DNA from: Pseudohongiella sp.
GTDB taxonomy: Bacteria; Pseudomonadota; Gammaproteobacteria; Pseudomonadales; Pseudohongiellaceae
NCBI RefSeq assembly: GCF_011050365.1
Contig: NZ_DRFV01000016.1
Span: forward strand, 69,549 to 109,548
Direction: 5' to 3'
DNA: 40,000 nucleotides
The position numbers and the translations under genes are program-made. Numbering within the stretch: position 1 is the stretch's first letter; every line of letters starts with the position of its first letter. This document shows, piece by piece, positions 4,753 through 20,391 of this stretch. The notes under the pieces were generated by a model. That model searched no databases and was not told the origin of the DNA. It was given only the letters and a program-made list of their open reading frames with translations.

Positions 4753-5291
4753 GAGTAAGCCCTGTTTTTCCAGCCGTTGTGAAAGACGCCCTGGGTAGGA
4801 TCGGCAGCGATGATCAGCCGGTAATGTCCATAGGCTTCTGAGCGCATGGCAGCCAGCGGGTTGAGCTGATCACGGATATCGTTGATGGCGGCGAAGGTTT
4901 TGGAGCCCAGCAGGCCATCTTCAAGCACCGGTTTATTGCAAGCACGCAGCGCCCGTTGGATGATCTTCACGGCAGGTTTAGAGCGCATGTTGACCAACAG
5001 GTCAAAGGCTTTGATGGCCACCAGATCATGATTGATCTCGTCGAGCCGGTAGTAGTCCCAGAAGTGTTTGCGATACAAGCGGGCGACTTCACCAGGTGTC
5101 AGGGCGGTGATGTCTGCTTCGGTCACGTGGCCGTCGCCATCGATGTCGCCGTCCAGGTCGGGCAGACCTTTCAGAAAGCGCAGCGATATCCCATAGTCAG
5201 TCACGCCACCCCGGTCAGCCTTATGGTCAACCAGACGGCCCTCTTTTTTCAGGGTCTGCTGCAGTGCTGCGAGAAACGCGTTGGCGCTCAT
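4749..5291 (-). CDS. Endolysin, GH108-type muramidase with C-terminal peptidoglycan-binding region
   Basis: The N-terminal motif KKEGRLVDHKADRGGVTDYGIS matches the GH108 EGG...DxGG.TxxGI signature. ATG at 5291 with SD AGGAG upstream; the track's GVG-type start at 5303 has no SD. First gene of the leftward late/lysis operon. Confidence 0.8.
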   Translation of the reverse strand: MSANAFLAALQQTLKKEGRLVDHKADRGGVTDYGISLRFLKGLPDLDGDIDGDGHVTEADITALTPGEVARLYRKHFWDYYRLDEINHDLVAIKAFDLLVNMRSKPAVKIIQRALRACNKPVLEDGLLGSKTFAAINDIRDQLNPLAAMRSEAYGHYRLIIAADPTQGVFHNGWKNRAYS

Positions 5292-5383
5292 GGGTAGAAT
5301 CACTCCTATGTTGGAGTGATCCTAATCGCGCGGGGCGGGAGGAGGCTTTTAACCTAAGTTAGTAAATGGGGATAAAGCACAAA

Positions 5384-5743
5384 TCAGAAGGTGCCCGCAC
5401 GGAGCTTTACGTATGTTTTATTGTCGGACGACGCTAGAAACTTACGTCCATCGACGATTTTACCTATAAACGTGACTTCCTTTTTACGACCACCAAGTAG
5501 CAGGCCAGCCAAGAGTCCCACTGGACCCAAAGCCAGCGCACCAGCGGCACCCCATCCAACTGTCCCTGCCGCTTTCTTGACTGTCTCTTCAGTGGCGATC
5601 TCGAATTCAATATCACTGATTTTGATTTCTTCGGGCCAAAATTCACCATCCACTGGGAAGAGTATTTTCTCGTCTTTCACGCGAGCGGCGCCAAGTACGA
5701 ATGGCCCGGCGATAACCTTGATATTGCTCATTAGCGGTCTCAT
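5384..5743 (-). CDS. Small glycine-zipper membrane protein, unknown function; start uncertain (5743 or 5731)
   Basis: The ORF is co-oriented with the repressor gene and 55-67 nt downstream of it. It has a central GxxxG-rich TM segment (GTVGWGAAGALALGPVGLLAGLLLGG) flanked by two short beta-rich soluble segments. Confidence 0.55.
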   Translation of the reverse strand: MRPLMSNIKVIAGPFVLGAARVKDEKILFPVDGEFWPEEIKISDIEFEIATEETVKKAAGTVGWGAAGALALGPVGLLAGLLLGGRKKEVTFIGKIVDGRKFLASSDNKTYVKLRAGTF

Positions 5744-5798
5744 CGATGCGGGCTCACGGCGAAAAGCGCCCAATTAAATGTGGATTGCTCTCTCGTGC

Positions 5799-6320
5799 TC
5801 AGTCTTCTATTTCTACCATGATCAACGCATCAAGCACAGACCTTACTGTATCGACGCTTGGCGCAGTGCGGCTGTTGGACAGCGTTTTATTTTGATAAAT
5901 GATCGACACGGCCTTAGAAAACACCTTTGGCGGCAACGTCTCGTAGTCTTTGTTGTCTAGTATCACAGCCCAGATACCCTGCACAATTTTGTTCATCAGG
6001 TCCATATCGAGGTCTTTGCTGGTGGTGAGCGCGTATTTTGCACCATCCTCAGCAATATTAAGCAAGCTGCTTTCCGCTGTATCGATCTCATGCAGATTCT
6101 CGCTCCTGACCCCGGTTACGATGTATTGCACATCCGCACCTAGCCGTGCAATTCGCGCCAAATAATCTGCCGAAGGCGAACCGTTTCCCAGCTCGTACCT
6201 CGACTGCGAGTTCCTCGCCACGGCTCCTTGAGCCGCAAATTCAGGCTGCAGATAGCCTAGCCGTTCTCTTTCTTCCTTAATTCGGCCTGCTATTTCTACA
6301 ATTAACGTGATATTTTTCAT
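5799..6320 (-). CDS. Prophage repressor, XRE/Cro-CI-type HTH (Mu c analogue)
   Basis: N-terminal HTH (IAGRIKEERERLGYLQPEFAAQGAVARNSQSRYELGNGSPSADYLARIARLGADVQYIVTG). It is divergent from the Ner-like gene across a palindromic operator. I prefer the ATG at 6320, because the longer ORF start at 6359 would place the palindrome inside the coding sequence. Confidence 0.75.
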   Translation of the reverse strand: MKNITLIVEIAGRIKEERERLGYLQPEFAAQGAVARNSQSRYELGNGSPSADYLARIARLGADVQYIVTGVRSENLHEIDTAESSLLNIAEDGAKYALTTSKDLDMDLMNKIVQGIWAVILDNKDYETLPPKVFSKAVSIIYQNKTLSNSRTAPSVDTVRSVLDALIMVEIED

Positions 6321-6328
6321 TTTAATAT

Positions 6329-6358
6329 TGACTATTCTACAGTTTTGTAGAATAGTCA
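6329..6358. promoter_or_regulatory. Operator: perfect inverted repeat TGACTATTCTAC-N6-GTAGAATAGTCA with overlapping promoter-like hexamers
   Basis: The arms at 6329-6340 and 6347-6358 are exact reverse complements. On the plus strand, TTGACT (6328-6333), a 17-nt spacer and AATAGT (6351-6356) face the Ner-like gene. The symmetric hexamers face the repressor gene. Confidence 0.6.
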
Positions 6359-6424
6359 CCTTGTAAGTTTACTTTTATTACCCTGCTGCGAATCAGGGAA
6401 ATTACAAAACAGGAGTATAGCACC

Positions 6425-6709
6425 ATGAATACCGAGCGTATTCGAGAACTGCTTGGACAGCACGGCTATAGCTTGTCCCGCATAGCCAAGCTGCTCGATG
6501 TTCAACCATCCTATGTGTCCCTTGTAGTGGCGCGGAAGCGCAGAAACCACCGTGTAGCGATTGCCATTGCTACTGCCATTGAACGACCAGTCGACAGTGT
6601 CTTCCCCGACGTTCCGCTTTATCATGGCCCTCTTACAACTGCCGAGCAGCGTGATGCCGAGCTGGCCAGGCGCCTTCAATCTCAAGGCGTTATTCGGCGG
6701 TCCGCATAA
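6425..6709 (+). CDS. ner: Ner-like DNA-binding early regulator
   Basis: 94 aa. The HTH plus downstream IA.A...P....P pattern is collinear with Mu Ner / E. coli Nlp as I recall them. It is the first gene of the rightward early operon, with SD AGGAG upstream. Confidence 0.7.
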   Translation: MNTERIRELLGQHGYSLSRIAKLLDVQPSYVSLVVARKRRNHRVAIAIATAIERPVDSVFPDVPLYHGPLTTAEQRDAELARRLQSQGVIRRSA

Positions 6710-6938
6710 TGCAAGGCGCTGCAATCTGCCGCCGCCAATCGACTGACAGCTCCAGAGCAGTGAGCGGCACACCGTCTGTAAAAATCAGCTCCAGCAACAC
6801 CTCAGCTGATCGATCCAGGGCCCTCTCACGGACAGATGGAGGCATCATTGCGCTTATCGCCTGTGTCAACTGCCCGATAATCAAAGCCTGGTTAAGTGCC
6901 AGAGTCTCCAACCTTTCTAACCTCTTCAAGTTCGCCAT
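6690..6938 (-). CDS. Small helical hypothetical protein, antisense to the early operon
   Basis: 82 aa from the ATG at 6938 with a strong SD (ACGGAGAG, 4 nt spacing). The sequence looks protein-like (MANLKRLERLETLALNQALIIGQLTQAISAMM...), whereas the competing plus-strand ORF 6709..7068 is S/R-rich junk. Its 3' end overlaps the ner 3' end by 20 nt. Confidence 0.45.
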   Translation of the reverse strand: MANLKRLERLETLALNQALIIGQLTQAISAMMPPSVRERALDRSAEVLLELIFTDGVPLTALELSVDWRRQIAAPCIMRTAE

Positions 6939-7067
6939 TTCGCTCTCCGTCTTCGTTACCAAATGCGTCGCTCCGACGCTTTTGAGACAAGCCTATAGCC
7001 GGCCGTTCGCGGCGGATAGAGCGCAAAACCGCTTTTGTTTAGAACACGCCTCCAGAGGACATTTCTA

Positions 7068-7553
7068 ATGTCGCGAATAAATTGGAACAAGGTCCAACCA
7101 ACCAGTATTACGCATGCGATGGAGCTGTGTGTGGGCTGTGCCAGGGAAAAAAAGAACCTGTCTGTAGAGCGTATTGCAGAGTTGATGGGCTTGGCTGGCC
7201 ACCACTCACTGTACAAATGGATGGCCGAGGGACGGATGCCAGCAGTGCTGGTAAGACCCTTTGAGCATGCCTGCGGCGCCAGTTTCGTCAGCCGTTACAT
7301 GGCTCATTCAGCCCAGTACCTAACGTTGAAAATCCCGAGCGGATCGAAGGCGGACGCCCGCGACATCAATGCCCTTCAATCGAGCCTGACAAGCGCTGTC
7401 GGCGCTTTGATCAAATTCCATGATGCCCAATTGTCCCAGGACGACTGTATCGCCGCCCTGACCGGTGCGCTGGAGAACTTGGCATGGCACCGGGCGAATG
7501 TGGAAAAAGCCGACACACCTGAGCTGAGTTTATTTGAGGAGGAGATCCAGTGA
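7068..7553 (+). CDS. Phage regulatory protein with HTH, CII (CP76/186-CII)-like
   Basis: ATG at 7068 with SD AGAGGA 8 nt upstream. HTH segment: NLSVERIAELMGLAGHHSLYKWMAEG. The overall layout resembles 186 CII-family proteins (from memory, not aligned). Confidence 0.5.
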   Translation: MSRINWNKVQPTSITHAMELCVGCAREKKNLSVERIAELMGLAGHHSLYKWMAEGRMPAVLVRPFEHACGASFVSRYMAHSAQYLTLKIPSGSKADARDINALQSSLTSAVGALIKFHDAQLSQDDCIAALTGALENLAWHRANVEKADTPELSLFEEEIQ

Positions 7554-7628
7554 AGCGTCGATCACAACCGAAGCAATCTAAAAGCCGCAACACCTATGCA
7601 CCGAAGAAAGCGGCCGGAACCATGATGT

Positions 7629-7997
7629 ATGGACCGCACCCGCACACTCAGCACCAACATCGAATTCGCCAGGGCGCTGGCCAGGAGTCACCACGACATG
7701 GCTGAGAACATTCATGAGCGCGTTTGCCAAATGATCACGGCCATGGCTGGCCATGAGGTTCATGGGCTACGCAATTCAGAGCTGGCCGATGCCCTAAACG
7801 TCTCTCGCCCAACAATTACCCGCGACCTGGCTTCACTGCAGCGCATTGGCATTGTTGAGCAGATTCCGGGAATGCAGGGCCGGTGGCGGCTCGGCCCCAA
7901 GATCATTCAGATATCGCGCGCCCATGCTGAGGGCATGGCGCGGGTTAAATCCGCTGTTGCAGAGATCGAGCAACGCTTTTCACGCAACCCACTTTAG
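7629..7997 (+). CDS. Winged-HTH DNA-binding protein (IclR/MarR-type N-terminal domain)
   Basis: Contains LRNSELADALNVSRPTITRDLASLQRIGIVEQ, a typical wHTH. The start is uncertain (7629 or the internal ATG at 7698, which follows AGGAG). Confidence 0.6.
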   Translation: MDRTRTLSTNIEFARALARSHHDMAENIHERVCQMITAMAGHEVHGLRNSELADALNVSRPTITRDLASLQRIGIVEQIPGMQGRWRLGPKIIQISRAHAEGMARVKSAVAEIEQRFSRNPL

Positions 7998-8007
7998 GAG
8001 AGACATC

Positions 8008-8967
8008 ATGGCAGCTGACGCAAATGAAAAACGCAAACCAGGGCGACCGAAGGAAACTGCAGCCGCAGAGAAAATCGGCCCTGAATTCGTTACAGAGACC
8101 CCGAAGGACATGCAACAGGCCGAAGCTGCCTGGCACGGGGAGCAAATTGAGCATGATCGGAACCTGGTGGTGATAGACAAGCAATACGGCGACAGCTTGC
8201 CTTACGACATAACACGCCTGGAGAACGAGACAAGATTCTATTTGGGTCAAAGTGCAGAATCCATGGTACAGGCCGGCAAGAGGCTCGTAGTAATCAAAGA
8301 GCACGAAGGCCACGGTCAGTTTTTGTCCTCGCTTCAACGAATCGGGCTGGAACCTCGCACAGCCCAGCTAATGATGAAAGCTTCCATCAAGTTTGGCACG
8401 GCAAATGCGAAATCGATTACGCATTTGGGCAGCACAAAGCTTTTTGCACTTCTGACCCAAGATGATGAAGATCTGGAAGCCCTCAGTGATGGTGGCACGG
8501 TTGCTGGCCTGAAGCTGGATGATATCGAAAAGATGTCAGTGCGGGAGCTTAAGGCAGCGCTGAGAGCTGAGCGCGAACTGCGCGCAGAGGATGCCGACGT
8601 GAAAGAGCGCCTACTGGCAAGCAAGGAGCAAAAGGTCAACCTTCTCGAAAGGGAACTTGATGAGCGAAAGCTGCGAGTCAAGAAGTGGGACGGGGTGGTT
8701 TCTGAAATCACTTCTAACGTCACCATCATGGCTGGTGGTGCCATCCAGCAAATAAATCACCTGCGCACACAGATCGAACAAATCCAGGAAGAATCCAAAA
8801 AGTTCGATCTCTCAAAACAGGAGATGGAAGCGATCGTCAAACCATTCGCTGATCACATCTCGACTCTGGGCGAATATTTCCGCGAGCTAGAAGCTGAGTT
8901 CGGACTCAACCTCTCAGTCTATATGCCAGCGCATGGTGGCAACTTTATTGAGCACTCTGAGGACTAA
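8008..8967 (+). CDS. DUF3102-like early protein with C-terminal coiled coil
   Basis: ATG at 8008 with SD TAGGAGAGA. The track ORF from 7846 overlaps the previous gene and looks like a false extension. Motif AGKRLVVIKEHEGHGQFLSSLQRIGLEPRTAQLMM is typical of DUF3102 proteins of Mu-like phages and plasmids. Confidence 0.6.
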   Translation: MAADANEKRKPGRPKETAAAEKIGPEFVTETPKDMQQAEAAWHGEQIEHDRNLVVIDKQYGDSLPYDITRLENETRFYLGQSAESMVQAGKRLVVIKEHEGHGQFLSSLQRIGLEPRTAQLMMKASIKFGTANAKSITHLGSTKLFALLTQDDEDLEALSDGGTVAGLKLDDIEKMSVRELKAALRAERELRAEDADVKERLLASKEQKVNLLERELDERKLRVKKWDGVVSEITSNVTIMAGGAIQQINHLRTQIEQIQEESKKFDLSKQEMEAIVKPFADHISTLGEYFRELEAEFGLNLSVYMPAHGGNFIEHSED

Positions 8968-8971
8968 AGGC

Positions 8972-10744
8972 ATGAACCAGCTAGCCACAGATATCATTCG
9001 TCAGCTGGCCATGAGGCTCGACACCGCGCCTCATGGCAGCAAACGTGCTGAGGTTGAACAGGTAGCTGAGGCGCTTGGCTGGTCACCGCACAAGGTCTAC
9101 GAGCACCTCAAAAAAGTCGGCTGGAGCTCAGGTCGTAAAAAACGCTCTGATGCCGGCACAACGACTGTGAGTGACCAGATGCTAAGTGATCTGGCAGCGG
9201 TGGTTGTAACCTCCATCAGAGCCAATGGCAAAGTCATCATGGATGTGCCCAATGCCCGCAGCATGCTGCAGGCGAACGGCCGTGATTTCGAAGTCAGCAA
9301 CGGCCACTTGAACCGGCTGTTGCGCAAAAGGCAGATGAACGCGCCAGCGCTCAAGCGGGCAACGCCTCACGTTCAAATGAAGTCGCTGCACCCAAACCAT
9401 GTGCACCAGGTAGACCCCTCGTACTGCGTGCTGTACTACCTGCCTGGTAAAAAAGGGCAGGATGTCCAGCGCTTCGCCAGTGACGATGAGTTCTACAAAA
9501 ACAAACCTCAGAATATCGAGCGCAACGCCTCACTTCGGGTGTGGCGATATGTGCTGACCGATCACTACTCAGGGACAGTGCTGGTGCGCTACTACCAGAG
9601 CGCTGGCGAGACGCAAGCCAACCTGTGGGACTTCCTGTTGTGGTGCTGGGCGAAGATGGCTGGCAGGCCGATGCACGGTGTCCCGACGCTGTTGATTTGG
9701 GACAAAGGCAGTGCCAACACGTCCTCTGCGATCAAGAATGCGCTGACGGCGCTGGATGTCAAAGATATCCCTCACAAGGCACACAACGCCCGCGTTAAAG
9801 GTCAGGTTGAAGGTGGCAACAACCTGGTGGAGAAGCTCTTTGAGAGCCGTTTGCGATTCCAGCCGGTGCATAGCGTCGATGAGCTTAATGAAGCCGCTGA
9901 GCGCTGGTCGACCGCCTTCAACGCAAATGCCATACCGTATTTTGACAGCCGTCTGGCTCGCGATGGGATGGCCCAGCCGCTTGCCCGTTTTGCGCTGTGG
10001 CAGACCATCCGTAAAGAGCAACTTCGAATACTGCCCGATATCGCCTTGTGCCGCACTTTGCTGGCCTCAGCGCCGCAGTCACGAGTGGTCAGTCAGGCCA
10101 TGACAATCAGCTTTAAACACCCGCAGGCTGACAGATCGCTGACCTATGATCTGCGTGGTCTGCCTGCTGTCCACCCTGGTGCAAAAGTGGACGTGTGTCC
10201 GCTGGTCTTTGGCGATCGGCAGGTGAAGGTGATTGCTACCGATTACAAGGATGAGAAGCACAGCTTCAGTGTGTCGCCGGTCGAGTTCAATGATCTGTCT
10301 GGCTTCCGTGTGGACGCGCCGGTCTGGGGCGAGGAGTTCCAGTCGATGCCGGACAGCGTTCAGGACGCCAATCGCAAAGACGCCATCCGCAATGCTTATC
10401 CGGAAAAAACGGATGAGGAAATCGAAAAGCTCAGGCGCAAAAACGTGGCGCCGTTCGGTGGCCTTGATGCGCACAGCCATCTGGGCAACGTGTACAAGCC
10501 TTCCTACATGCCGCGCCTGGGCACGGATATCGAACTTCCCAACACCAACACGATGGAAACCAGGCCGCTGTCGATCATCGAAGCCTGCAAACGCATTCGC
10601 TCCACCCTGGGCAGATCACTCTCGCCCGAGGAGAACCAGATCATCAGAGACCGGTACCCAAGTGGTGTGCCAGTGGATGAGTACGACCAGCTCGTTGAGC
10701 TGATTAATGGACCGCCGGAGGCGAAACTGGCCCTGGTGAAATAA
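8972..10744 (+). CDS. Transposase, DDE (DD35E) retroviral-integrase superfamily; MuA functional analogue
   Basis: 590 aa from the ATG at 8972. N-terminal HTH region. Catalytic candidates are D in HQVDPSY, D in LIWDKGS and E in KGQVEGG; I counted exactly 35 residues between the second D and E. Confidence 0.85.
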   Translation: MNQLATDIIRQLAMRLDTAPHGSKRAEVEQVAEALGWSPHKVYEHLKKVGWSSGRKKRSDAGTTTVSDQMLSDLAAVVVTSIRANGKVIMDVPNARSMLQANGRDFEVSNGHLNRLLRKRQMNAPALKRATPHVQMKSLHPNHVHQVDPSYCVLYYLPGKKGQDVQRFASDDEFYKNKPQNIERNASLRVWRYVLTDHYSGTVLVRYYQSAGETQANLWDFLLWCWAKMAGRPMHGVPTLLIWDKGSANTSSAIKNALTALDVKDIPHKAHNARVKGQVEGGNNLVEKLFESRLRFQPVHSVDELNEAAERWSTAFNANAIPYFDSRLARDGMAQPLARFALWQTIRKEQLRILPDIALCRTLLASAPQSRVVSQAMTISFKHPQADRSLTYDLRGLPAVHPGAKVDVCPLVFGDRQVKVIATDYKDEKHSFSVSPVEFNDLSGFRVDAPVWGEEFQSMPDSVQDANRKDAIRNAYPEKTDEEIEKLRRKNVAPFGGLDAHSHLGNVYKPSYMPRLGTDIELPNTNTMETRPLSIIEACKRIRSTLGRSLSPEENQIIRDRYPSGVPVDEYDQLVELINGPPEAKLALVK

Positions 10745-10759
10745 CCCGCAACACTGACC

Positions 10760-11998
10760 ATGACGGAGAGAGCAATGGCAGCACCAAACACCGTTACACA
10801 CATCCCTGGCGCCACCCTGATGCTGAAACGCGTGATGTTTCGCCTCGGTGTTAGCCAGGTCCAACTGCACCGCGTAGTCGGGATCCCGACCAGCACGCTG
10901 TGCGAGATCATCAACCACAACAACTGGCCCACCAATCATGACCACCAGATGATTCGCCGAGCCACCGAGGAGCACATGCTCCAATGCGGCGCATTAACGC
11001 AGGACATCAAGACGCTGTGGCAGTTCGATGAGGATGACACGCCAGTGACTTACCACGGCCACCTGGTCCGCATGCGTAAAGCTAACCCAGTTGTCGACTC
11101 ATCGAAAAAAACTGCTTTTATCAACGAAGAATTACCGGAGAACGAGATGCTGAGCCAGAAAGCCAAACAGCTTTTTAAACTGTTCAATGATCCATTTATT
11201 GATGATGTGACATGCCCGGATGATGTCTTTATGTCGCCCGATCAGCAGTACGTTCGCGGGGCCATGTACCAGACTGCCAAGCGCGGCGGGTTCATCGCTG
11301 TTGTTGGCGAGAGTGGTGCAGGCAAAACCACTTTGCGCCGGGATCTGCTGGACCGGATCAACCGCGAGGATCCGAATATCCGGGTTGTGTTCCCCAGGAT
11401 TATCGACAAATCGCGCATCAATGCCAGCAGCATCTGTGATGCGATTCTCGCTGACATGGATGTACGGCCCAAGTCGTCGCTGGAAGCAAAAGCCAGGCAG
11501 ATCGAAGTGCTGCTGTCTGAATCAGCACGGGGCGGCAACGCTCACGTGATCATGATCGAAGAGGCACACGACGTGCCGATCCAGACGCTCAAATTTATGA
11601 AGCGGTTTTGGGAGCTGGAGGACGGCTTTAAGAAATTGATCAGTATCATCCTGGTCGGCCAGCCCGAGCTGAAAAACACCCTCAATGAACACATCCATCC
11701 GGAGATCCGCGAAGTGTCGCGCCGGTGCGAAATCATCGAGCTGCAGCCGCTCAACGGCAACCTGGAGAAATACCTGGAGCTGAAGTTCAAACGGGTCGGC
11801 CGCAGCCTGGCGGACATCTTCGAGAAAGATGCCTTTGATGCCATCCGGGCGCGCCTCAGCGTCCATAGGGGCACGAGTCGGGTGCCAGTCAACATGATGT
11901 ACCCGCTGATCGTGAACAACTGCGTGACCGCTGCCATGAACTCCTGCGCTGAGCTGGGTATGGCGAAAATCAATGCTGAACTGATCAAGGAATTGTAA
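10760..11998 (+). CDS. Transposition ATPase, MuB/TniB-like AAA+
   Basis: Walker A VVGESGAGKTTL and Walker B VIMIEEAHD, with an N-terminal HTH-like segment. It lies directly after the transposase. An alternative start at 10775 has the better SD (GGAG at 10765). Confidence 0.85.
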   Translation: MTERAMAAPNTVTHIPGATLMLKRVMFRLGVSQVQLHRVVGIPTSTLCEIINHNNWPTNHDHQMIRRATEEHMLQCGALTQDIKTLWQFDEDDTPVTYHGHLVRMRKANPVVDSSKKTAFINEELPENEMLSQKAKQLFKLFNDPFIDDVTCPDDVFMSPDQQYVRGAMYQTAKRGGFIAVVGESGAGKTTLRRDLLDRINREDPNIRVVFPRIIDKSRINASSICDAILADMDVRPKSSLEAKARQIEVLLSESARGGNAHVIMIEEAHDVPIQTLKFMKRFWELEDGFKKLISIILVGQPELKNTLNEHIHPEIREVSRRCEIIELQPLNGNLEKYLELKFKRVGRSLADIFEKDAFDAIRARLSVHRGTSRVPVNMMYPLIVNNCVTAAMNSCAELGMAKINAELIKEL

Positions 11999-12000
11999 CC

Positions 12001-12534
12001 ATGCAATCTCTCATGCAATCGCTGACGTTTGCCCAGTGGCTCGATCTGGCGGTGCTGCTGGTAACCGGCCTACTGGTCCTGTTTGGGTTCTGGCTGATGG
12101 CCGGGGCCCAGCAGGACGACTCGCAGCCAGACTTGCACTACCTGGCAGAGATAGATGATTTCCGGGGTAATGCGGCGGTCGAGCACTGGGCCAACGTGTT
12201 TGTGCTCAACAACGTACCCAGGCGCTTCGGCCTGAGTTTTGCGCAGTTCATGACCAACCCGCGCGGCTACCTGCAGGTGCTGTTCTTCTATCCCGCCAAG
12301 GATGTACCAGAAGTGCGGCCGCTGCTGCCGGCACAGGTCGTGGTGTATGAGCGGCTGCTGCGCGAGGAGCTGGAGGCGGAGGAGCTGCAGCAGCTGCAGG
12401 ACAGAGAACTCGCTGCCCTGGAGAGCCGGTACCAGACGATCAGCAACAGCGGTGGCCGCATCACCAGCTCCATGGCCACCCGCAAGCAGCCTCGCAAGTG
12501 GCAGACACGCGGCACCCACCTGAAACACGCCTGA
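12001..12534 (+). CDS. Membrane-anchored hypothetical early protein
   Basis: 177 aa with an N-terminal TM helix (WLDLAVLLVTGLLVLFGFWLMAG) and an E/L/Q-rich helical C-terminus. SD AAGGAA lies 8 nt upstream. Confidence 0.6.
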   Translation: MQSLMQSLTFAQWLDLAVLLVTGLLVLFGFWLMAGAQQDDSQPDLHYLAEIDDFRGNAAVEHWANVFVLNNVPRRFGLSFAQFMTNPRGYLQVLFFYPAKDVPEVRPLLPAQVVVYERLLREELEAEELQQLQDRELAALESRYQTISNSGGRITSSMATRKQPRKWQTRGTHLKHA

Positions 12535-12561
12535 CCCCATTTTCTACTGAGGAGCATGACC

Positions 12562-13176
12562 ATGCAAAACGCTATTCCCGAAGGCTACCGCAAAAATGCG
12601 CGCGGCGACCTGGTCAAAGAGTCTGGCATCAAACCGATAGACCTGGCGCGCGATGAGTTGACCATGGAGATCGTTGCCAAGGCCAGAAATGTCAGTCAAC
12701 TGCTGAGCACCGTGAAGGCGTCGATCTACGGCGACATCGAAGCATTCGTCGAGATGTCAGCCGAGCAGTACGGGGTCTCCCTGGGCGGCAAAAAAGGCAA
12801 TCTGACGCTGCTCTCGTTCGACGGCCGCTACAAAGTGCTACGCGCCAACGCTGACAATATCGTTTTCGATGAGCGTCTTTACGCCGCCAAGGAACTGATT
12901 GACGAGTGTCTGCGCGACTGGAGCAAGGACGCCCACCCAGGCCTGATGATGATGGTCAACGATGCTTTCCGCGCTGATCGCAATGGCGAACTTCGCACTG
13001 CTCGAGTGCTTGCCCTGCGCCGGCACAACATCGATGACCCACGCTGGAACCGGGCCATGGATGCGATCAGTGATGCCCTGCAGGTGGTCGGCTCGAAGAG
13101 TTACATTCGCGTCTATGAGCGGGTCGGTGAGACTGATCAGTACAAGCTGATCCCACTTGATATTGCGGGGGCTTGA
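12562..13176 (+). CDS. DUF3164-family protein (conserved in Mu-like phages)
   Basis: 204 aa from the ATG at 12562 (SD GAGGAG, 7 nt spacing). The sequence and its position after the B gene match my recollection of DUF3164 proteins. Confidence 0.65.
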   Translation: MQNAIPEGYRKNARGDLVKESGIKPIDLARDELTMEIVAKARNVSQLLSTVKASIYGDIEAFVEMSAEQYGVSLGGKKGNLTLLSFDGRYKVLRANADNIVFDERLYAAKELIDECLRDWSKDAHPGLMMMVNDAFRADRNGELRTARVLALRRHNIDDPRWNRAMDAISDALQVVGSKSYIRVYERVGETDQYKLIPLDIAGA

Positions 13177-13178
13177 GC

Positions 13179-13814
13179 ATGCCAGCGAGCAAAGATATGA
13201 ATCGTCCTTTACTACCTGTCATCGGACTGCGGCTTGGTTATGAGCGGGATAGGCTCGGGCTCACGCAGGTTCAGCTTGCTGAAGTTGCAGGAGTGAAGAT
13301 TCGAGCACAGCAAAACTACGAAGGTGGTAAACGCGCTCCTAACGCGGAATACATTCTCAGGCTACACGAGGCGGGTGTCGACATTCTTTTCGTACTGACG
13401 GGAAAGCGCACGCCCAAGGCCGCACCGGAGCTGCCACGGCTGCACTCGCACGACAAAACTATAAGCGCTACGACAGCAGAAGCGATTCTGAAGCTGATTA
13501 TCCCAGGAAAGCAGAAAGATGCCGACTGGTACCCAGGCACCGACATGCCGTTCGTCGTGTCCAACGTGGGCAACGCCCAGGACGGACTCAACATGGTGGT
13601 GTTTGTGTGCATCGACGCCTCGCTGCCAGAGCACGTTGTTGCCCGACCAGTGTTCCTGGAAGTGGCGAATGTCCAGCCTCCGGTCATGCTGCCTCGCAGC
13701 CGCTTCCGGTTCTCACCAGGTGATGCCGCTGTGGCGGCTATGGGTCTCAAGGATGCGGTCACCCGGGTAATCAAACTGCGCAACCAGCAGCAATCAACGT
13801 CACTGGACGCGTAG
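13179..13814 (+). CDS. Second XRE-type HTH protein with a unique C-terminal domain
   Basis: The HTH (IGLRLGYERDRLGLTQVQLAEVAGVKIRAQQNYEGGKRAPNAEYILRLHEAGVDILFVLTG) is clearly paralogous to the HTH of the repressor at 5799..6320. Confidence 0.7.
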   Translation: MPASKDMNRPLLPVIGLRLGYERDRLGLTQVQLAEVAGVKIRAQQNYEGGKRAPNAEYILRLHEAGVDILFVLTGKRTPKAAPELPRLHSHDKTISATTAEAILKLIIPGKQKDADWYPGTDMPFVVSNVGNAQDGLNMVVFVCIDASLPEHVVARPVFLEVANVQPPVMLPRSRFRFSPGDAAVAAMGLKDAVTRVIKLRNQQQSTSLDA

Positions 13815-13833
13815 CGTCCCCAGGAGAGAGATC

Positions 13834-14049
13834 ATGAGTGGCATTTCAACATGTGATAAGCAGGCGATCCTCGTTTCAAGATCGAACGGCATTTGTCTGT
13901 TTACTTACCCCAACTCTCGCGAGCTGGCGGACGGTGCGATCAATCGCGCCTGGTCGGAAATGACCGACGCAGAGTGTGCGGCCTGGCTGCGGGCACGGGC
14001 TGATGAAGTCGAGGCCGAGACAGCGACTGAAGAGGTGACCCATGGATAA
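13834..14049 (+). CDS. Hypothetical early protein
   Basis: 71-aa ORF with SD GGAGAGAG upstream, packed in the early operon. Confidence 0.55.
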   Translation: MSGISTCDKQAILVSRSNGICLFTYPNSRELADGAINRAWSEMTDAECAAWLRARADEVEAETATEEVTHG

Positions 14050-14188
14050 CGCAGACCAGCTGGGCAAACAGATCCTCAAGGCCGTCGCCTACCTCATTTT
14101 CGTGTTCCCGTTTGTCTGGGTATGGCGAAAGCTGACTGGATCCAAGGCCGGTACCGAGCGGCCGGACGACGATCAGGGGGAATCATGA
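14042..14188 (+). CDS. Small single-TM protein (48 aa), below the ORF-track size cut-off
   Basis: My translation: MDNADQLGKQILKAVAYLIFVFPFVWVWRKLTGSKAGTERPDDDQGES. Its start overlaps the previous stop by 8 nt, and its stop overlaps the next start (ATGA at 14185-14188). This fills an otherwise unexplained gap. Confidence 0.45.
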   Translation: MDNADQLGKQILKAVAYLIFVFPFVWVWRKLTGSKAGTERPDDDQGES

Positions 14189-14514
14189 GCATCGCCCAGG
14201 AAATAGCGCTCAAAAATCGTCGCCACGTGGGCTCACCTGGTGTTTCAGCATACGACATCGATGCGTTGGTTTCGGATGCGCGCGATCAATGCATCGGCGA
14301 GTGGCACTACGATGACGTCGGTGTCAGCGACTACAGCTTCATTGATGGTAGCACCCTGCAGATCTTCCACGTGGTGGTTACCGCCAGCGATGAATCGGAT
14401 CCTCAGGGCCCAGCCGAGGAACTGATCGGCATTCAATCTGCACCCAAGAAAGCCATCGGCCGGGTTGGTCTGCTCAAGTCACTCACCAATCTCATCAGAG
14501 GTGCCCGCGCATGA
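14185..14514 (+). CDS. Hypothetical early protein
   Basis: 109 aa from the ATG at 14185 (MSIAQEIALKNRR...), translationally coupled on both sides. Confidence 0.6.
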   Translation: MSIAQEIALKNRRHVGSPGVSAYDIDALVSDARDQCIGEWHYDDVGVSDYSFIDGSTLQIFHVVVTASDESDPQGPAEELIGIQSAPKKAIGRVGLLKSLTNLIRGARA

Positions 14515-14789
14515 GGATCTGCGTCAAAGACAGCAACGGCACCTACAACGCCAAGGTCGACGGCACAGACATCAAAGCCAGCTGCACGGCCAGCCCTGCG
14601 CAGGCAGCAGCACGAGCCGCCTGCAAGGCATTCAACCTGGCACATGATGAGGTGGAAGTCGCCATTTCAGGCGGCGATCGTGAGCTGACCTGGTATACAG
14701 CAAAACCGACAGGTACCGGTGCCAGGGCTCGGGCAAACATGAGCTTTGAGGAGCTTTTTGACGAGGTGATCTGTGGCAAATCCGCGTAG
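14511..14789 (+). CDS. Hypothetical early protein
   Basis: 92-aa ORF with an ATGA overlap to the upstream gene. Confidence 0.6.
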   Translation: MRICVKDSNGTYNAKVDGTDIKASCTASPAQAAARAACKAFNLAHDEVEVAISGGDRELTWYTAKPTGTGARARANMSFEELFDEVICGKSA

Positions 14790-15270
14790 CGACATCGCCA
14801 TGATCAAGGTTGCCATCAAGCAGCTGGGCATCGCTGACGATGATGGCAACGAGGCTGCTGGCGTGCTGAGCACATACCGCCAGATGCTGATGTCAGTCAC
14901 CGGCAAAACCAGCGTCAGCGCCGATGCGATGACCGACCGTGAGCGCGCCAAGGTGCTGCGCCACCTGCGACAGCAGGGCTTCGTACCCAAGAGCACGAAG
15001 AAGCGGCCACGGCGCGTTGAGCGGGCACCAGGCATGCTATCCCAGGGAGAGCTGGGACTGATACATGTCCTGTGGCGTGCCCTGGAAGACGCCGGCGAGA
15101 TCAAGAGCCCAGGCAAAGAATCGTTGTGCGCCTGGGTGGAAAACTTTACCACTCAATTCAATAGTGGTAGAGGATACAGCGCACCTGAGTTCCTGCCGCA
15201 GTATGCGGCCGGAAAGGTGATAGAGCAGCTCAAGCAGTGGTGCCGACGCTGCCACATTGAATGGGAATAA
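14773..15270 (+). CDS. Mu gp16 / GemA-like protein (DUF1018)
   Basis: The N-terminus (DIAMIKVAIKQLGIADDD...YRQMLMSVTGKTS...MTDRERAKVLRHLRQQG) follows the DUF1018 pattern. It sits immediately before Mor, as in Mu-like phages. Confidence 0.7.
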   Translation: MANPRSDIAMIKVAIKQLGIADDDGNEAAGVLSTYRQMLMSVTGKTSVSADAMTDRERAKVLRHLRQQGFVPKSTKKRPRRVERAPGMLSQGELGLIHVLWRALEDAGEIKSPGKESLCAWVENFTTQFNSGRGYSAPEFLPQYAAGKVIEQLKQWCRRCHIEWE

Positions 15271-15284
15271 TGGAGAGTTCCGCG

Positions 15285-15635
15285 ATGTCAGTTCCTGAGA
15301 TCCAACAGGATGACGACATACTGATCGACTTACATCAGATCGCCGCGAGGCTGATCTGCAGCGACGGCGTGCCGGCCGAGCGTGCAGACGAGCTGGCCGG
15401 CCGCATCGCCCAGGAGATCCGATCGGCTTGGGGTGGGCAACAGATATACATCAAGAAAACCGACCTGGTGGAGCTGTCAGCCAGGAATCTGGATATCTAC
15501 AACGAGTTCAATGGTACCAACCACCACCAGCTGGCCAAAAAGCACGGCCTGGCTGTGCCTGTCATCTACCGCATCATCAAATCCGTGAAGCAGCAGGAGC
15601 GCGACAAGCGCCAGCACAAGCTTTTTCAGGAATGA
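15285..15635 (+). CDS. mor: Mor-family transcriptional activator (middle/late switch)
   Basis: The C-terminal HTH region (RNLDIYNEFNGTNHHQLAKKHGLAVPVIYRIIK) is typical of Mor/C family proteins. The best start is the ATG at 15285 (SD GGAGAG, 7 nt spacing); the track start is 15261. Confidence 0.8.
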   Translation: MSVPEIQQDDDILIDLHQIAARLICSDGVPAERADELAGRIAQEIRSAWGGQQIYIKKTDLVELSARNLDIYNEFNGTNHHQLAKKHGLAVPVIYRIIKSVKQQERDKRQHKLFQE

Positions 15636-15648
15636 ATTGACCGAGACA

Positions 15649-16578
15649 TCAGGAGTCGAGCTGGTTAGTCGTCAGCGAGAGCCTCCTTACCTGGCTTAGA
15701 TGTTTACGGTATAAGGCATCATCATCACCATCCAGCACCAGTGATATTTGCTCTAAGTTGCCAGGGCTCAAAAATCGCATGCCTATAGCCACAATACCCT
15801 CAGCGCGCTCTATCTTCCTTTCAAAACCTTGACACCATTCTGACCAATCCCGCAGACTACGGTGCTCCATGGTATCGATATCCAACTCAAGCAGTTCACG
15901 AAATTTGGCCTGAAGGTCGAGCACGAGCAGGTCCCGCAGATCGTTCTTTGAGTATAGAATTTCAATACCGGAGAGGGCCCCAACAACCTCTTCGACAATA
16001 TGCTCTTCGCTTGCTTTTCCAGCTCCCATCACCGAGGCCGTATCTCTTTCTTCCATGGTTGCCTGTCTGACACGAATGAGCTCGTGCCTCTGATCACGTA
16101 CCATTTTGGACAACAATTTCGCCACAGCATTTGGGCACCCTTTGCTCGGCGTGATCAGCGCCTGTACATTGCGATAGACCGCTGATCCTCCCTCATTTAG
16201 AACTTTGTCTAGCGACTCGCTATGGCGCTCTTCTTGCGAGAGGAATGATCCAACAATCTCCCTGTTGAGTTGAGCAGTCCTATCCCTTTCAAACACCTTG
16301 GTAAGCTGGTCGAACTCCACACCGAAATTGATTTTCCCACAGACAGTGCCAATGTTTGTCACAAGTCCCGTCTGAGTCGATACGACGTAACCTTTGTTGT
16401 GTGGCGTATGGCAATGGGATAGGCCGCAATGCTGCTTACTTGCAAAGACATACCTACCAATTATGGCCTCCAGAGCGTTATCTGTTGCATTCAGATTGTC
16501 AGTAAAGCCTGGTAAGGACTCAATTTCGTCCCACGACTCTACTTCTACAAACCCTCGTTCTGTACTTATCGTGATCAT
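15649..16578 (-). CDS. Orphan 309-aa protein with an N-terminal Cys/His cluster and a helical C-terminal two-thirds
   Basis: Long clean ORF with SD GAGGT 6 nt before the ATG at 16578. Cluster: HCGLSHCHTPHNKG...GTVCGK. It is in opposite orientation to the flanking phage genes, is AT-richer, and has no family that I recognise. Confidence 0.75.
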   Translation of the reverse strand: MITISTERGFVEVESWDEIESLPGFTDNLNATDNALEAIIGRYVFASKQHCGLSHCHTPHNKGYVVSTQTGLVTNIGTVCGKINFGVEFDQLTKVFERDRTAQLNREIVGSFLSQEERHSESLDKVLNEGGSAVYRNVQALITPSKGCPNAVAKLLSKMVRDQRHELIRVRQATMEERDTASVMGAGKASEEHIVEEVVGALSGIEILYSKNDLRDLLVLDLQAKFRELLELDIDTMEHRSLRDWSEWCQGFERKIERAEGIVAIGMRFLSPGNLEQISLVLDGDDDALYRKHLSQVRRLSLTTNQLDS

Positions 16579-16670
16579 CAAATTACCTCTGTGAGCTGGC
16601 TAGCGTTAAGGAAGTGAAATGATGATAGCACCCGTTTAAAAAGGTCGCTGACGAACTTAGAAAATTTAGG

Positions 16671-16697
16671 TCAAAAAATACCCGGCCGGAGCCGGGT
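16671..16697 (-). terminator. Rho-independent terminator on the minus strand
   Basis: The minus strand reads ACCCGGC-TCCG-GCCGGGT followed by ATTTTTTGA (7-bp GC stem, 4-nt loop, T6 run). It lies ~95 nt upstream of the 309-aa gene start. Confidence 0.55.
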
Positions 16698-16839
16698 CAA
16701 TGCTACAGCGTGCTTCCTGCTGGCGAATTTTGCGCTTTCTCTAAGTTTTATAGCAGCTGTGTGCACTTTTTTCTGAACTTTACTTTACGGTCCAATTGGT
16801 ATGTAGTGCAGACCACATACCACAGTTTGGAGAGAGACG

Positions 16840-17334
16840 ATGGCACGAAATATCCACGATATGGACGAAGATCTAAGTCGCTGGCAGGACAGCTACGCCG
16901 GACTCAGAATGGTGTTTCTAACCATTCCCGATACAATCTTAAAAGTGATCCAAAGTGGTAAGAGCAAGATTTCACAGGGTCACGCTTGTGCTTTCAGCGC
17001 TGCCGAAGTCACCCCGCAGCCGGAACGCGACGAGTTTAGGTTTCAATTCTTGTCCTGGCACTACTATTTTCAGTTTACCAGCGTTGTTAAGGCCGTCTCA
17101 GATGGATATAGCCTTGTCGGTAAAGTGACTGTGATGAAGAAATCCGTCCAGGCCACTGAAGATGAAGTAGGTGTCGATGTCGATGAATTCTATATCGACT
17201 CTCAAGGAGGCACTGTTGGCTGGAATGCCGGAAACCGTGACCTCACTGACAATTTCGGCGTTGAGGTGTTTCTTGTGGAGCTGCTACATAAAGAACTTGT
17301 CGCTGGCGCAAGAGCCGCAGAGGCCAACGCCTAG
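16840..17334 (+). CDS. Orphan 164-aa hypothetical protein
   Basis: ORF with SD GGAGAG 5 nt upstream of the ATG. The composition is protein-like, and I recognise no family. Confidence 0.7.
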   Translation: MARNIHDMDEDLSRWQDSYAGLRMVFLTIPDTILKVIQSGKSKISQGHACAFSAAEVTPQPERDEFRFQFLSWHYYFQFTSVVKAVSDGYSLVGKVTVMKKSVQATEDEVGVDVDEFYIDSQGGTVGWNAGNRDLTDNFGVEVFLVELLHKELVAGARAAEANA

Positions 17335-17374
17335 CCAGCCAGATGACCATAAGTGGCTGATCTACCTATTGGAT

Positions 17375-17449
17375 TATCCGGAAGTAGGGCACAGAGACGA
17401 GCTTGAGCCTGCCTCTGTGCCGGCAGCATGAGCTACGCATTTCCGGATA
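17375..17449. promoter_or_regulatory. Nested inverted repeats (two 9-bp stems) between the 164-aa gene and the rexA-like gene
   Basis: Outer arms: TATCCGGAA (17375-17383) / TTCCGGATA (17441-17449). Inner arms: GGCACAGAG (17388-17396) / CTCTGTGCC (17413-17421). No T-run follows, so it is not a canonical terminator. Confidence 0.5.
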
Positions 17450-17624
17450 TCAGTCACGCTTGACTGGACTTCGCTATTACCCAAATGGGTAGGTTGGCCA
17501 ATATTAGTTTCATTCTTGACAACAATATTTCATAATTGCGTTTGACCTTGATGACCTGCAGAGCTGGGACTTGCCCGGTTATATCTGCAGGCATTGCCAA
17601 TCATAAGAATAACGGAGGCAGTGG

Positions 17625-18578
17625 GTGAAGCTGAACTATTACGGGTACCTGGTAGAGAGACACTCCGACGAAGAGCAGTTCGTTTTCGACATCAACCCAC
17701 TCCTCAGCGCTTTTTACGAGCTGGATGCCCCTGAATTTAAGAGCCGATTCCACTATGGAGGTGAAAGCCTCTACCTAATCAGAATCCGTCAGAACGTATA
17801 TCTGTATCTGATGTCAAAATCCCAAGAGATTATCAAAAAAATCAAAGAGACCGATCTCACGGTCACCGGTATCTTCGATTTGCTCGAAGAGCATGAAAAA
17901 CTGGGGTTCGCGTCGTATTTGGTAGTTGGGGACGGCTATCTCGGTTTTGCATCGACCGTGCTTGCCCCCAAGGCTGTTTCATTCGGCAAGTTTATTAACG
18001 ATATTTTCGATTCTCTAGGCCTGGCCGATTACAAGTTCATCATGAGACCATTACTCCATGAAGCGACTGCAGCCGACGTGGTCCAGATGCCGATACATGG
18101 CAAAGCAATGATAGAGATCAACAACGCGAACACTATATTTAGGGAACTCCGAGATCTGTTTGGTGGTGATGTACAGGATTTCACTAATGTTGGCAGTATA
18201 GAGATTACGTTCAAGCCCCAATCACGAAAGAGTATTGACCCTGCTATCCGTAAAGTTATCGAGAATCTGCCCGCTGACGGGGTTGAACGATTTATGGTTC
18301 GAGCGAAAGAAAATGCGGCCGATCATCTGAGTGACATATTTATCACGGGGAAAGGAGCGATCTCCGACATGGTAAAAAAGGGCTCTGATCAAGAAGTATC
18401 GGAGAATATTAGGCTAGCAGTCCAAACCAACCAACTGCTTCAAGAAAAAGTCAATGAGCATGTGAATGATGCCAACACCCAACAAGCTACGCCTCAAGCT
18501 ATTAATGCTTATTTTCATGCTCCTGCCTGGGCCGCTGCTGTGGCTAGGTTACAGGTGCCTGACGACAATTTGGCCTAA
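17625..18578 (+). CDS. rexA: RexA-like protein (soluble component of a Rex-type abortive-infection/exclusion pair)
   Basis: GTG start preceded by GGAGG. It shows collinear similarity to lambda RexA as I recall it: EKLGFASYLVVGDGYLGFASTVLAP vs ESLGFPSFLFVEGDTIGFARTVFGP; YKFIMRPLLHEATAADVVQM vs ERVQIEPLMRGTTKDDVMHM; GSIEITFKPQSRKSI vs DSLDIVIKPKFKRDI. Confidence 0.75.
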   Translation: MKLNYYGYLVERHSDEEQFVFDINPLLSAFYELDAPEFKSRFHYGGESLYLIRIRQNVYLYLMSKSQEIIKKIKETDLTVTGIFDLLEEHEKLGFASYLVVGDGYLGFASTVLAPKAVSFGKFINDIFDSLGLADYKFIMRPLLHEATAADVVQMPIHGKAMIEINNANTIFRELRDLFGGDVQDFTNVGSIEITFKPQSRKSIDPAIRKVIENLPADGVERFMVRAKENAADHLSDIFITGKGAISDMVKKGSDQEVSENIRLAVQTNQLLQEKVNEHVNDANTQQATPQAINAYFHAPAWAAAVARLQVPDDNLA

Positions 18579-18954
18579 TATTGCATTGGGGCTGAGTGCA
18601 GAATCCAACTCCATAGCAGGCATTATTGCAGGCTTCTCCTTCACAATGCTCGGCTTTCTGGCTGCCGTGATTACGATCTTGTTTTCGGTATCAGGCAGCA
18701 AGTCGTATCAGCGGTACAGGAATGCTGGCAATTTGGAAGTGTTCTTTTTTATCTATTACCTGACTTTGGTATGTCTGGTGGTCACCGCTGGACTATCATT
18801 GGTAGCCCTTTCCTCGCTGTCGGAGCCTTGGGGAATAAAGGTTTTGTTGGGCTCTTTTGCAAACAACATTTTCCAGGTATTCGTGATCACGGTGATTATC
18901 TGTAATTTGGCAAGTAAGGGAGCGCCTAGAAACCCAGCGTCGCCGGCCTCCTAA
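18466..18954 (+). CDS. rexB: RexB-like 4-TM membrane protein; start uncertain (18466, 18505 or 18517)
   Basis: Four hydrophobic helices. The segment GLSAESNSIAGIIAGFSFTMLGFLAAVITILF...NLEVFFFIYYLTLVCLVVTAGLSLVALSS parallels lambda RexB (GLGATLSSYAGTMIAILIAALTFLIG...). The gene overlaps the 3' end of the rexA-like gene in another frame. Confidence 0.6.
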   Translation: MMPTPNKLRLKLLMLIFMLLPGPLLWLGYRCLTTIWPNIALGLSAESNSIAGIIAGFSFTMLGFLAAVITILFSVSGSKSYQRYRNAGNLEVFFFIYYLTLVCLVVTAGLSLVALSSLSEPWGIKVLLGSFANNIFQVFVITVIICNLASKGAPRNPASPAS

Positions 18955-19100
18955 GTAAAATAATTCGCTTTCATACCTGCTGGAACTAGTTTCACCCAGT
19001 GCAACTGGATTTCGATATCCTTCGTCCGGTATCATCCCGCTCCATCCCGATTCATCCAGTTATCGTGTTTTAGGCCGGTGGTTTATCTAGTTCGGGTTCA

Positions 19101-19290
19101 CACTGCCGAGTCGTCGGGGTGGGGTGCAGCTTGTGGAGCGTATGCGACCCTTGGACGGTCGCATCCGAGCCCCCCATGGATGGGTTCACGGGCGTCTCCT
19201 CAAGCTGCACCCCCACCACCGGCGACGCGACATTCGCCACCACCCGAGACCCGCACCCCCACGGCAGTGCCCTTATGGTGGGGCCGTAAA
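19101..19290. repeat. GC-rich REP-like nested palindromes upstream of lipA
   Basis: A 13-bp perfect stem (19121-19133 / 19201-19213, extendable after a 1-nt bulge) encloses an 8-bp hairpin (19142-19149 / 19157-19164). CACTGCCG (19101-19108) is complementary to CGGCAGTG (19262-19269). The motif GCACCCCCAC or its complement occurs three times. Confidence 0.5.
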
Positions 19291-19338
19291 TGCGGTATCA
19301 TGGCCGAATTGGTTTTTTGATCACAGGATCAGGTTCAG

Positions 19339-20391
19339 ATGAGTCAGCAGCAACGCCCGCCTTCCATTCCCAGTGGCAGCAAATTCCGCAGCGAGCAGGG
19401 CTTCACCGCGATCAAGGATGGCGTGAAGAAATCGTCCGGTGCCGTGGAGCAGGCTGTGCCCGTGACGCGCAAGCCCAAGTGGCTGCGCGCACGCATGCCG
19501 GGTGGTGAGCGTTTTGAAGCAGTGAAGGCCAACGTGCGTGAGAACCGTCTGAGTACCGTTTGTGAAGAGTCGCATTGCCCGAATATTGGCGAGTGCTGGA
19601 ATAACGGGACTGCCACCATCATGGTCATGGGCTCGGTGTGCACACGCGCCTGCAAGTTTTGCGCAGTGGATACCGGCAACCCCGGCGGCTGGCTGGATGT
19701 GGACGAGCCTGAGCATGTGGCCAAATCAGTTGAGCTGATGGGGCTGCGGTATATCGTGCTGACCTCGGTGGACCGGGATGATCTGGACGATGGCGGCGCG
19801 GCGCATTACGCGGCCTGCGTGGCAGCCATCAAGGCGCGCACCCCGCAGGTGACGGTTGAGGCGCTGACGCCTGACTTCAGTGGCGACACGGAGGCAGTGG
19901 CCCGTGTCGTGGAGTCGGGGTTGGAAGTGTTTGCCCAGAACGTGGAAACCGTCAGGCGACTGACTCATCCGGTACGCGACCCGCGCGCGGGTTACCAGAA
20001 AACGCTGGATGTGTTGGCCTTTGCCAAGCAGCACCGTCCCAACGTGCTCACCAAAACCAGTCTGATGTTGGGGCTGGGTGAAACCGAAGAAGAAATTTTG
20101 CAGACCATGGATGATTTGCGTGCCATAGGGGTGGATATTCTGACTCTGGGGCAGTACCTGCAGCCGACGCGGAATCACCTGAAGGTGGAGCGGTTTGTCA
20201 GTCCGGAAGAATTTAACCGGTATCGGGAGCTGGGGCTGGCGAAGGGTTTTATGGAAGTGGCTGCCGGCCCGCTGGTGCGTTCCAGCTATCGGGCTGACCG
20301 GGTATTCGAGAAGAACAATCTGGGTATTCCGTTGCCGGCGCTGCCCGAGCTTGCGGTAGATGATAATCTCATTCCGCTGAAGGCTGTTTAA
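19339..20391 (+). CDS. lipA: Lipoyl synthase
   Basis: 350 aa. Radical-SAM motif [10 protein letters not shown], the N-terminal cluster [12 protein letters not shown], and end-to-end resemblance to LipA. Confidence 0.95.

Follow-up and report, generated by a model that had tools for sequence, protein, structure and literature searches.

The Rex pair of phage lambda, RexA and RexB, is the oldest known abortive-infection system, and its trigger and mechanism are unsettled. To our knowledge, almost all work on Rex systems has been done on the lambda pair. The scheme in which RexA activates RexB and RexB depolarises the membrane reportedly goes back to Parma and colleagues in 1992, as related by a citing paper. 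Here we analysed a distantly related rexA-rexB pair that lies at positions 17625–18954 of a 40,000-nucleotide (nt) stretch of the marine gammaproteobacterium Pseudohongiella sp. (contig NZ_DRFV01000016.1, positions 69,549 to 109,548; hereafter the window), close to one end of a transposable prophage.

Our picture of the lambda Rex mechanism also draws on PMC11077077. In the actinobacteriophages Sbash (gp30/31), Butters and Rubeelu, extra genes separate the rex-like pair from the immunity repressor (PMC11077077). Uncoupled rex genes therefore have precedent, and repressor linkage is not a defining property of the Rex family because these three phages also lack it. Unlike the carrier described here, they are integrase-type siphoviruses of Actinobacteria, with larger RexA homologues of 337–372 amino acids (aa); the comparison with them was made by description.

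A search of the accessible literature returned no report of RexAB on Mu-like phages, and the papers containing both terms use Rex as an analogy only. Likewise, no RexA-matching entry among 50,697 isolate-phage records is a transposable phage. The best isolate-phage RexA match, Salmonella phage MS2 LVA, was considered as a possible transposable carrier and rejected, as it is classified as a Lederbergvirus. The window pair represents a new host and a new carrier for a known Rex system, not a new kind of system; we count it as known since PADLOC and Pfam recognise the pair directly. All features of the Rex family that can be assessed in the sequence were found at this locus, and only the lambda-specific linkage to the repressor is absent. 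The general picture of Rex systems is thereby unchanged, while a diverged, intact pair on a transposable phage of a marine gammaproteobacterium is added to it.

The 317-aa and 162-aa proteins belong to the RexA and RexB families

The rexA-like gene (17625–18578, + strand) starts with GTG and encodes 317 aa; the rexB-like gene (18466–18954, + strand) starts with ATG and encodes 162 aa. Both open reading frames (ORFs) are as given in an initial annotation, which had been made from the letters of the window alone. As in lambda Rex (PF15969/PF15968; PADLOC 'Rex'; structure 8TWQ), two families occur in the adjacent order rexA then rexB on one strand of a temperate prophage.

The 317-aa protein matched the Pfam family RexA (PF15969) with E=1.2e-58 and 198.9 bits (cutoff 25) over model positions 1–234 of 235. 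The PADLOC RexA model (E=1.2e-52) and the PHROG family 'RexA-like exclusion protein' (E=2.2e-26) matched as well. BLASTP against lambda RexA yielded a collinear alignment of 219 residues with 25% identity (E=1e-22), and the lambda RexA structure 8TWQ was the top PDB match by sequence (E=2e-19). Within the BLASTP alignment, the block EKLGFASYLVVGDGYLGFASTVLAP of the window protein pairs with ESLGFPSFLFVEGDTIGFARTVFGP of lambda RexA, a segment that the initial annotation had given correctly when it proposed collinearity of the two proteins. The 317-aa protein belongs to the RexA family, with a match far beyond chance.

An AlphaFold2 (AF2) model of the window RexA, computed with 14 homologues as input, reached a mean predicted local distance difference test score (pLDDT) of 84. 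Foldseek returned 8twq_B and 8twq_A as the only significant PDB matches (E~1e-15, probability 1.0), followed by CENP-N-type kinetochore proteins at E~0.08, so the structural comparison proposed at the outset led to lambda RexA as the best match. The template modelling (TM) score to 8TWQ was only 0.43–0.49, a low value that may reflect a different angle between the two domains of RexA; a hinge and an open/closed change have been described for the lambda protein in its structure paper (PMC11077077). The model predicts a matching two-domain fold for the window RexA, with a split globular and a dimerisation domain as in 8TWQ. Residues R219 and K221, required in lambda for DNA binding and T4rII exclusion (PMC11077077), align to R226 and K228 of the window protein. 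The RAK basic motif is thus kept, its A227 is invariant across the family alignment, and the N-terminus MKLNYYGY is conserved throughout the family.

The window RexA is 38 aa longer than lambda RexA and carries a C-terminal extension of ~40 aa with a conserved Trp. Most members of the family comprise 305–320 aa, and the long form is therefore the common one. The family itself is small: a set of 1.84 billion cluster representatives contains 299 of its clusters (50% identity). An identical RexA is on record as WP_294134162.1, 'MULTISPECIES: hypothetical protein [Pseudohongiella]'; the public RexA copies found are named 'hypothetical protein', and NCBIfam holds no model matching RexA or RexB. Read from the sequence, a Shine-Dalgarno element GGAGG (17614–17618, + strand) precedes the GTG by 6 nt, and the block ACGG.GGCAG is kept in homologues.

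Window RexB is recognisable by profiles only. Its homology required the PADLOC model and a family profile because the Pfam RexB model and direct BLASTP failed, the pairwise BLASTP comparison with lambda RexB being not significant. PADLOC RexB matched the 162-aa protein over residues 15–151 with E=3.2e-17, residue 15 aligning with model position 8. When a profile of 11 family members was compared with lambda RexB by hhalign, a probability of 96.5% was obtained (E=1e-9, 121 collinear columns). The profile searches suggested initially were thus positive for both proteins, with the Pfam RexB model alone giving no match. The protein contains four hydrophobic segments, collinear with the four of lambda RexB, and basic residues fall on the predicted cytoplasmic side of the helices, with both termini predicted inside (N-in/C-in). 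In the AF2 model RexB is all-helical with four long helices. By these features, the 162-aa protein is a predicted four-helix membrane protein of the RexB family. The likeness to RexB that the initial annotation had seen in the topology holds; the pairing of the GL(G/S)A..(S/N)S.AG segments that it had added is out of register, as hhalign places lambda GLGATLSSYAGTM opposite window NSIAGIIAGFSFTM, ~7 residues later.

The pair closes a B3-like prophage and lies apart from the repressor candidate

Judged by its gene content, window 1–19100 is part of a B3-like (Mu-type) transposable prophage of a marine Pseudohongiella, unlike the lambdoid carrier of the original pair. The early operon (7035–15635, + strand) contains a DDE transposase (8933–10744; phrog_310, E=1.2e-78), a MuB-like AAA+ transposition protein (10760–11998; phrog_296, E=1.2e-58), DUF3164 (12556–13176) and GemA (14773–15270) and ends with a Mor-family late activator (15261–15635; Pfam Mor, E=6.7e-27), all on the + strand. 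Mu gp27 (3041–3604, − strand) is present among the late genes. The Mu-like character of the carrier, which had been proposed before, is borne out by this gene set. The transposase is 35–44% identical to the transposases of Pseudomonas B3-like phages, and the same range holds for the transposase and MuB-like proteins in the comparison with B3-like Beetrevirus phages such as JBD67. As in these phages, the early operon points toward the near genome end and closes with GemA and Mor, and the late and lysis genes diverge from the regulatory region. In JBD67, Mor lies 246 base pairs (bp) from the end and there are no rex genes; the corresponding 3.46 kb of the window (15636–19100) are therefore an accessory insert, absent from JBD67, which holds orf310 (− strand), orf164, rexA and rexB.

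A related marine viral contig (L002/L003/L017) served to map the prophage end: the two share homology up to 19100/19101, beyond which their flanks are unrelated. It lies 146 bp past rexB, and the last ~110 bp of the prophage are better conserved than the genes. This terminal region (18990–19100, + strand) contains 18-nt direct repeats at 19020–19037 and 19040–19057, which are probably transposase-binding sites, and it ends in ...GGGTTCA at 19100. The opposite prophage end, against which TG...CA termini and a target-site duplication would be read, lies outside the window. The host gene lipA (lipoyl synthase), on the same strand as rexB, starts at 19339.

The candidate immunity repressor (5799–6359, − strand) is an HTH_3 protein of 186 aa that matches Pfam HTH_3 and PHROG repressor families, and an NCBIfam RstR-like model below its cutoff. 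Among the annotated genes of the operon that diverges from the early operon it comes first, and it is the sole divergently transcribed HTH_3 repressor candidate. The rexAB pair lies 11.3 kb away from it on the opposite strand, with an opposite-strand gene in between. A lambda-type co-transcription with the immunity repressor is thus lacking for the window pair, and its place at the phage end, ~11 kb from the repressor, is as initially described.

A conserved region upstream of rexA

The leader between the end of the upstream ORF (17334) and rexA measures 290 bp (17335–17624), in agreement with the earlier description of the pair as having its own leader. It contains a conserved block (17476–17536, + strand), a candidate promoter/operator of rexAB, composed of the inverted repeat TTACCCAAATGGGTAGGT (17477–17494) and the −10-like element CATAAT (17531–17536). 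This block is kept in the Mu-like relatives and in a copy associated with a Tn7-like transposon (L005), while the sequence further upstream is unrelated; conservation amid unrelated flanks supports a self-contained regulatory region. The inverted repeat TTACCCAAATGGGTAGGT occurs nowhere else in the window, including the regulatory region at 6962–7035, and offers no connection to the phage repressor. Expression of the cassette probably starts from this conserved region of its own and does not depend on the repressor operon.

Two further observations concern the flanks of the pair. A 16-nt inverted repeat, GGCACAGAGACGAGCT / AGCCTGCCTCTGTGCC, is located right after orf164 (17388–17421); its sequence is not kept in relatives, and it may be a chance occurrence. 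Its 3′ arm is complementary to the Shine-Dalgarno region of rexA (17409–17418 versus 17612–21). Downstream, the consensus scan found no terminator after rexB, and no terminator-like site was detected at 18955–19339, between rexB and the same-strand lipA, which starts 238 bp past the phage end. Transcripts of rexAB could continue past the prophage end into lipA.

Rex pairs recur on transposable phages and are usually linked to the repressor

Genomic context was inspected at 20 loci. The marine viral contig used for mapping the prophage end represents the same phage type, carries rexAB at the same end after Mor and encodes a RexA 80% identical to that of the window. At L005, by contrast in setting, the bare cassette adjoins a Tn7-like transposon (TnsA/B, TniB, TniQ), and homology is limited to window 17598–18920; another pair, L006, is located in a region with P2/P4-type genes. 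By this comparison of sequences, the rexAB cassette is shown to be mobile.

A different arrangement was found in a classic Mu-layout prophage of a Desulfuromonadaceae metagenome-assembled genome, represented by two identical loci (L011/L028; string at L011 9145–11267). There, a CI-like repressor (Phage_CI_repr), orf131, rexA and rexB form one tight leftward same-strand string that reaches the phage end and diverges from genes for a ner-like protein, MuA (HTH_Tnp_Mu_1 + Mu-transpos_C) and MuB. By its gene order, this string is the Mu counterpart of the lambda cI-rexA-rexB operon. Similarly, in four B3-like/Mu-like viral contigs (L019, L020, L022 and L029) rexAB comes last in a same-strand string that lies to the repressor side of the divergent early promoter, and in L020, L022 and L029 the first gene of this string is homologous to the HTH_3 repressor candidate of the window. 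These pairs belong to the same RexA subfamily (27–38% identity), their rexB also overlaps the rexA 3′ end, and their carriers share the DDE transposase, the MuB-like protein and DUF3164 with the window prophage; they differ from it in that rexAB sits in an operon that begins with an HTH/CI-like repressor and adjoins the divergent early promoter.

At least 6 of the 13 IMG/VR loci place rexAB on transposable phages. The pair is thus recurrent on such phages and usually repressor-linked as in lambda, with the lineage of the window as the exception. The initial annotation had presented the pair as diverged, uncoupled from the repressor and informative. The distant pair is real; its novelty had been overstated, given the precedent in Sbash, Butters and Rubeelu and the recurrence on transposable phages.

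Candidates for a third gene of the cassette were also considered. A divergent gene of ~166 aa lies just upstream of rexA in L002 (9157–9657, − strand) and L005 (4784–5287, − strand), with 45% identity between the copies, and might act as an optional third component of the cassette or regulate it. As a conserved third gene it was rejected, since neither the window nor any of the other loci has it. Genes of ~240 aa upstream of rexA in L018, L020 and L022 were discarded as well, as they are not homologous to one another.

At one further locus, in Methylovulum psychrotolerans (L014, 10001–10761), rexA matches as two fragments (query residues 1–107 and 163–303) and is therefore probably a disrupted gene; an adjacent rexB homologue is detectable by tblastn (query residues 40–152).

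Phage exclusion as the probable function

We read the pair as a functional Rex-family phage-exclusion (abortive infection) module, which a B3-like prophage bears at its end as an accessory cassette ('moron'), and we assign this reading a probability of about 0.7. By homology with lambda, a dimeric cytoplasmic RexA would sense an infecting phage, and the activated RexA would open or activate the four-helix RexB in the inner membrane. RexB would then depolarise the membrane, and the resulting collapse of the membrane potential would abort the infection. In support of this reading, rexA-rexB pairs of the subfamily recur in many other phage contexts. Moreover, both intact genes bear a signature of purifying selection: among divergent copies sharing ~72–75% nucleotide identity, identities at the first, second and third codon positions amount to 84/93/45% in the rexA-only and 77/90/40% in the rexB-only part, figures that derive from three sequences, with Fisher p-values to be taken as indicative only.

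Several points weigh against exclusion as the function. Exclusion, depolarisation, the trigger and expression in the lysogen are inferred, and function is read from homology only. Even for lambda, neither the trigger nor the channel activity is fully established, and RexA also acts in the lysis-lysogeny switch (PMC11077077). Pfam RexB (PF15968) has no match to the 162-aa protein; this model is lambda-centred, with 305 bits for lambda RexB, and the related RexB proteins of L005, L006 and L022 reach 16–20 bits in collinear alignments under the cutoff of 27. The structural model of RexB is of low confidence (pLDDT 64). Lambda D215, which forms the D215–R261 domain contact, is not kept, the aligned position being occupied by R222 and hence not acidic. 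Finally, a simple sigma-70 consensus scan finds no promoter in the rexA leader, so that a promoter function of the 17476–17536 block is suggested by its conservation and was not called by the scan.

The pair could instead mainly serve prophage development, with RexA as a non-specific DNA-binding dimer biasing the lysogeny-lytic switch and RexB modulating host proteolysis or survival, a role that we consider unlikely. In lambda, RexA works on the bistable switch without RexB, and RexA homologues bind DNA (PMC11077077). The DNA-binding RAK motif of the window protein and the repressor-side operons with rexAB on five other transposable-phage contigs are compatible with such a role. The window pair, however, occupies the genome end amid accessory genes, with 11.3 kb between it and the repressor candidate, and the same cassette stands beside a Tn7-like transposon without any phage switch genes, which fits autonomous defence cargo better. 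For phage exclusion, the separation from the immunity switch and the stand-alone cassette beside Tn7 make this pair a reasonable candidate for testing exclusion without repressor linkage.

The 3′ end of rexA and the 5′ end of rexB are dual coding

The two genes of lambda are separated by a 15-nt gap, whereas those of the window overlap by 113 nt (18466–18578, + strand), with rexB in the +1 frame relative to rexA. This overlap, predicted by the initial annotation, is real, and dual coding is evident from the loss of third-position freedom. Compared with the single-coding parts of both genes, codon-position identities in the overlap are 76/74/76%, and therefore the third position is free in neither frame. 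The third-position identity in the rexA frame rises from 33–59% just upstream of the overlap to 69% at 18466–18516 and 87% at 18517–18578. In most other loci of the subfamily, too, the longest possible rexB ORF begins inside the 3′ end of rexA and shares 83–113 nt with it.

The RexA:RexB ratio matters in lambda. In the window, the overlap would probably couple the translation of rexB to that of rexA and thereby fix this ratio.

Public gene calls for rexB are shortened, to 145 aa by NCBI and others and to 122 aa by JGI, and the 162-aa form was found in no database; gene callers apparently shorten rexB systematically because of the overlap with rexA. Taken at face value, these calls would mean that rexB truly starts downstream, at M18 (18517) or at TTG 18586, with a short or absent overlap and three membrane helices instead of four. 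There is also no strong Shine-Dalgarno sequence ahead of ATG 18466, and the constraint on the rexB frame is lower in 18466–18516 (69%) than in 18517–18578 (87%). We nevertheless judge a downstream start to be rather unlikely. ATG 18466 is invariant in four close homologues and across the three close copies (the marine phage L003/L004, L005 and the window), while the internal Met codons M14 and M18 vary, and the PADLOC RexB alignment begins already at residue 15, corresponding to model position 8. The more distant L006 pair (43% identity) has no overlap, and its RexB N-terminus is equal in length, with the same basic segment and the same first helix, which supports the long form of RexB.

Further readings of the long-form pair

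A broader proposal, which strikes us as distinctly improbable, is that the long-form RexAB clade represents a distinct Rex subtype found preferentially on DDE-transposase elements, namely transposable phages and Tn7-like transposons. It would be marked by a RexA of ~310 aa whose C-terminal extension contains Trp, and by a rexB that starts within the 3′ end of rexA. RexA of such a subtype might act on transposition or replication intermediates and might sense these rather than foreign-phage complexes only. If this were true, the repressor-independent window copy at the genome end would provide a natural system to separate the defence role from the switch-modulating one.

That rexA and rexB are an inactive or decaying remnant without present function is hardly tenable: the public annotation as 'hypothetical protein', the rexB calls of 122 or 145 aa and the rexA of Methylovulum (L014) that appears split in two point in this direction, yet both ORFs are intact, purifying selection is strong across three divergent copies, and conservation extends to the start codons, Shine-Dalgarno sequence and upstream block.

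Other features of the prophage

On the − strand, the late and lysis genes include the large terminase (1465–3048) and a GH108 endolysin (4749–5303). The early operon opens with a cII-like gene (7035–7553, + strand) and contains a second HTH_3 protein of 213 aa (13173–13814, + strand), whose N-terminal part resembles the HTH of homologues of the repressor candidate elsewhere (tblastn cross-hits in L006, L022 and L029). Scans of the window for tRNAs and Rfam families were both empty.

Two accessory genes of unknown function lie between Mor and rexA. Directly upstream of rexA, orf164 (16840–17334, + strand) is a lineage-specific ORF with no family match in the profile libraries and no homologue at any fetched locus; in L002 and L005 its slot holds the unrelated divergent 166-aa gene instead. 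The other, orf310 (15649–16581, − strand; phrog_7003, E=1.4e-56), has a copy with 75% aa identity at the same place after Mor in the related marine phage (L002/L003). Between these two genes, upstream of where orf310 starts, the − strand holds a strong terminator-like hairpin (16680–16697) with 7 pairs, of which 6 are G-C, and a T-run after it.

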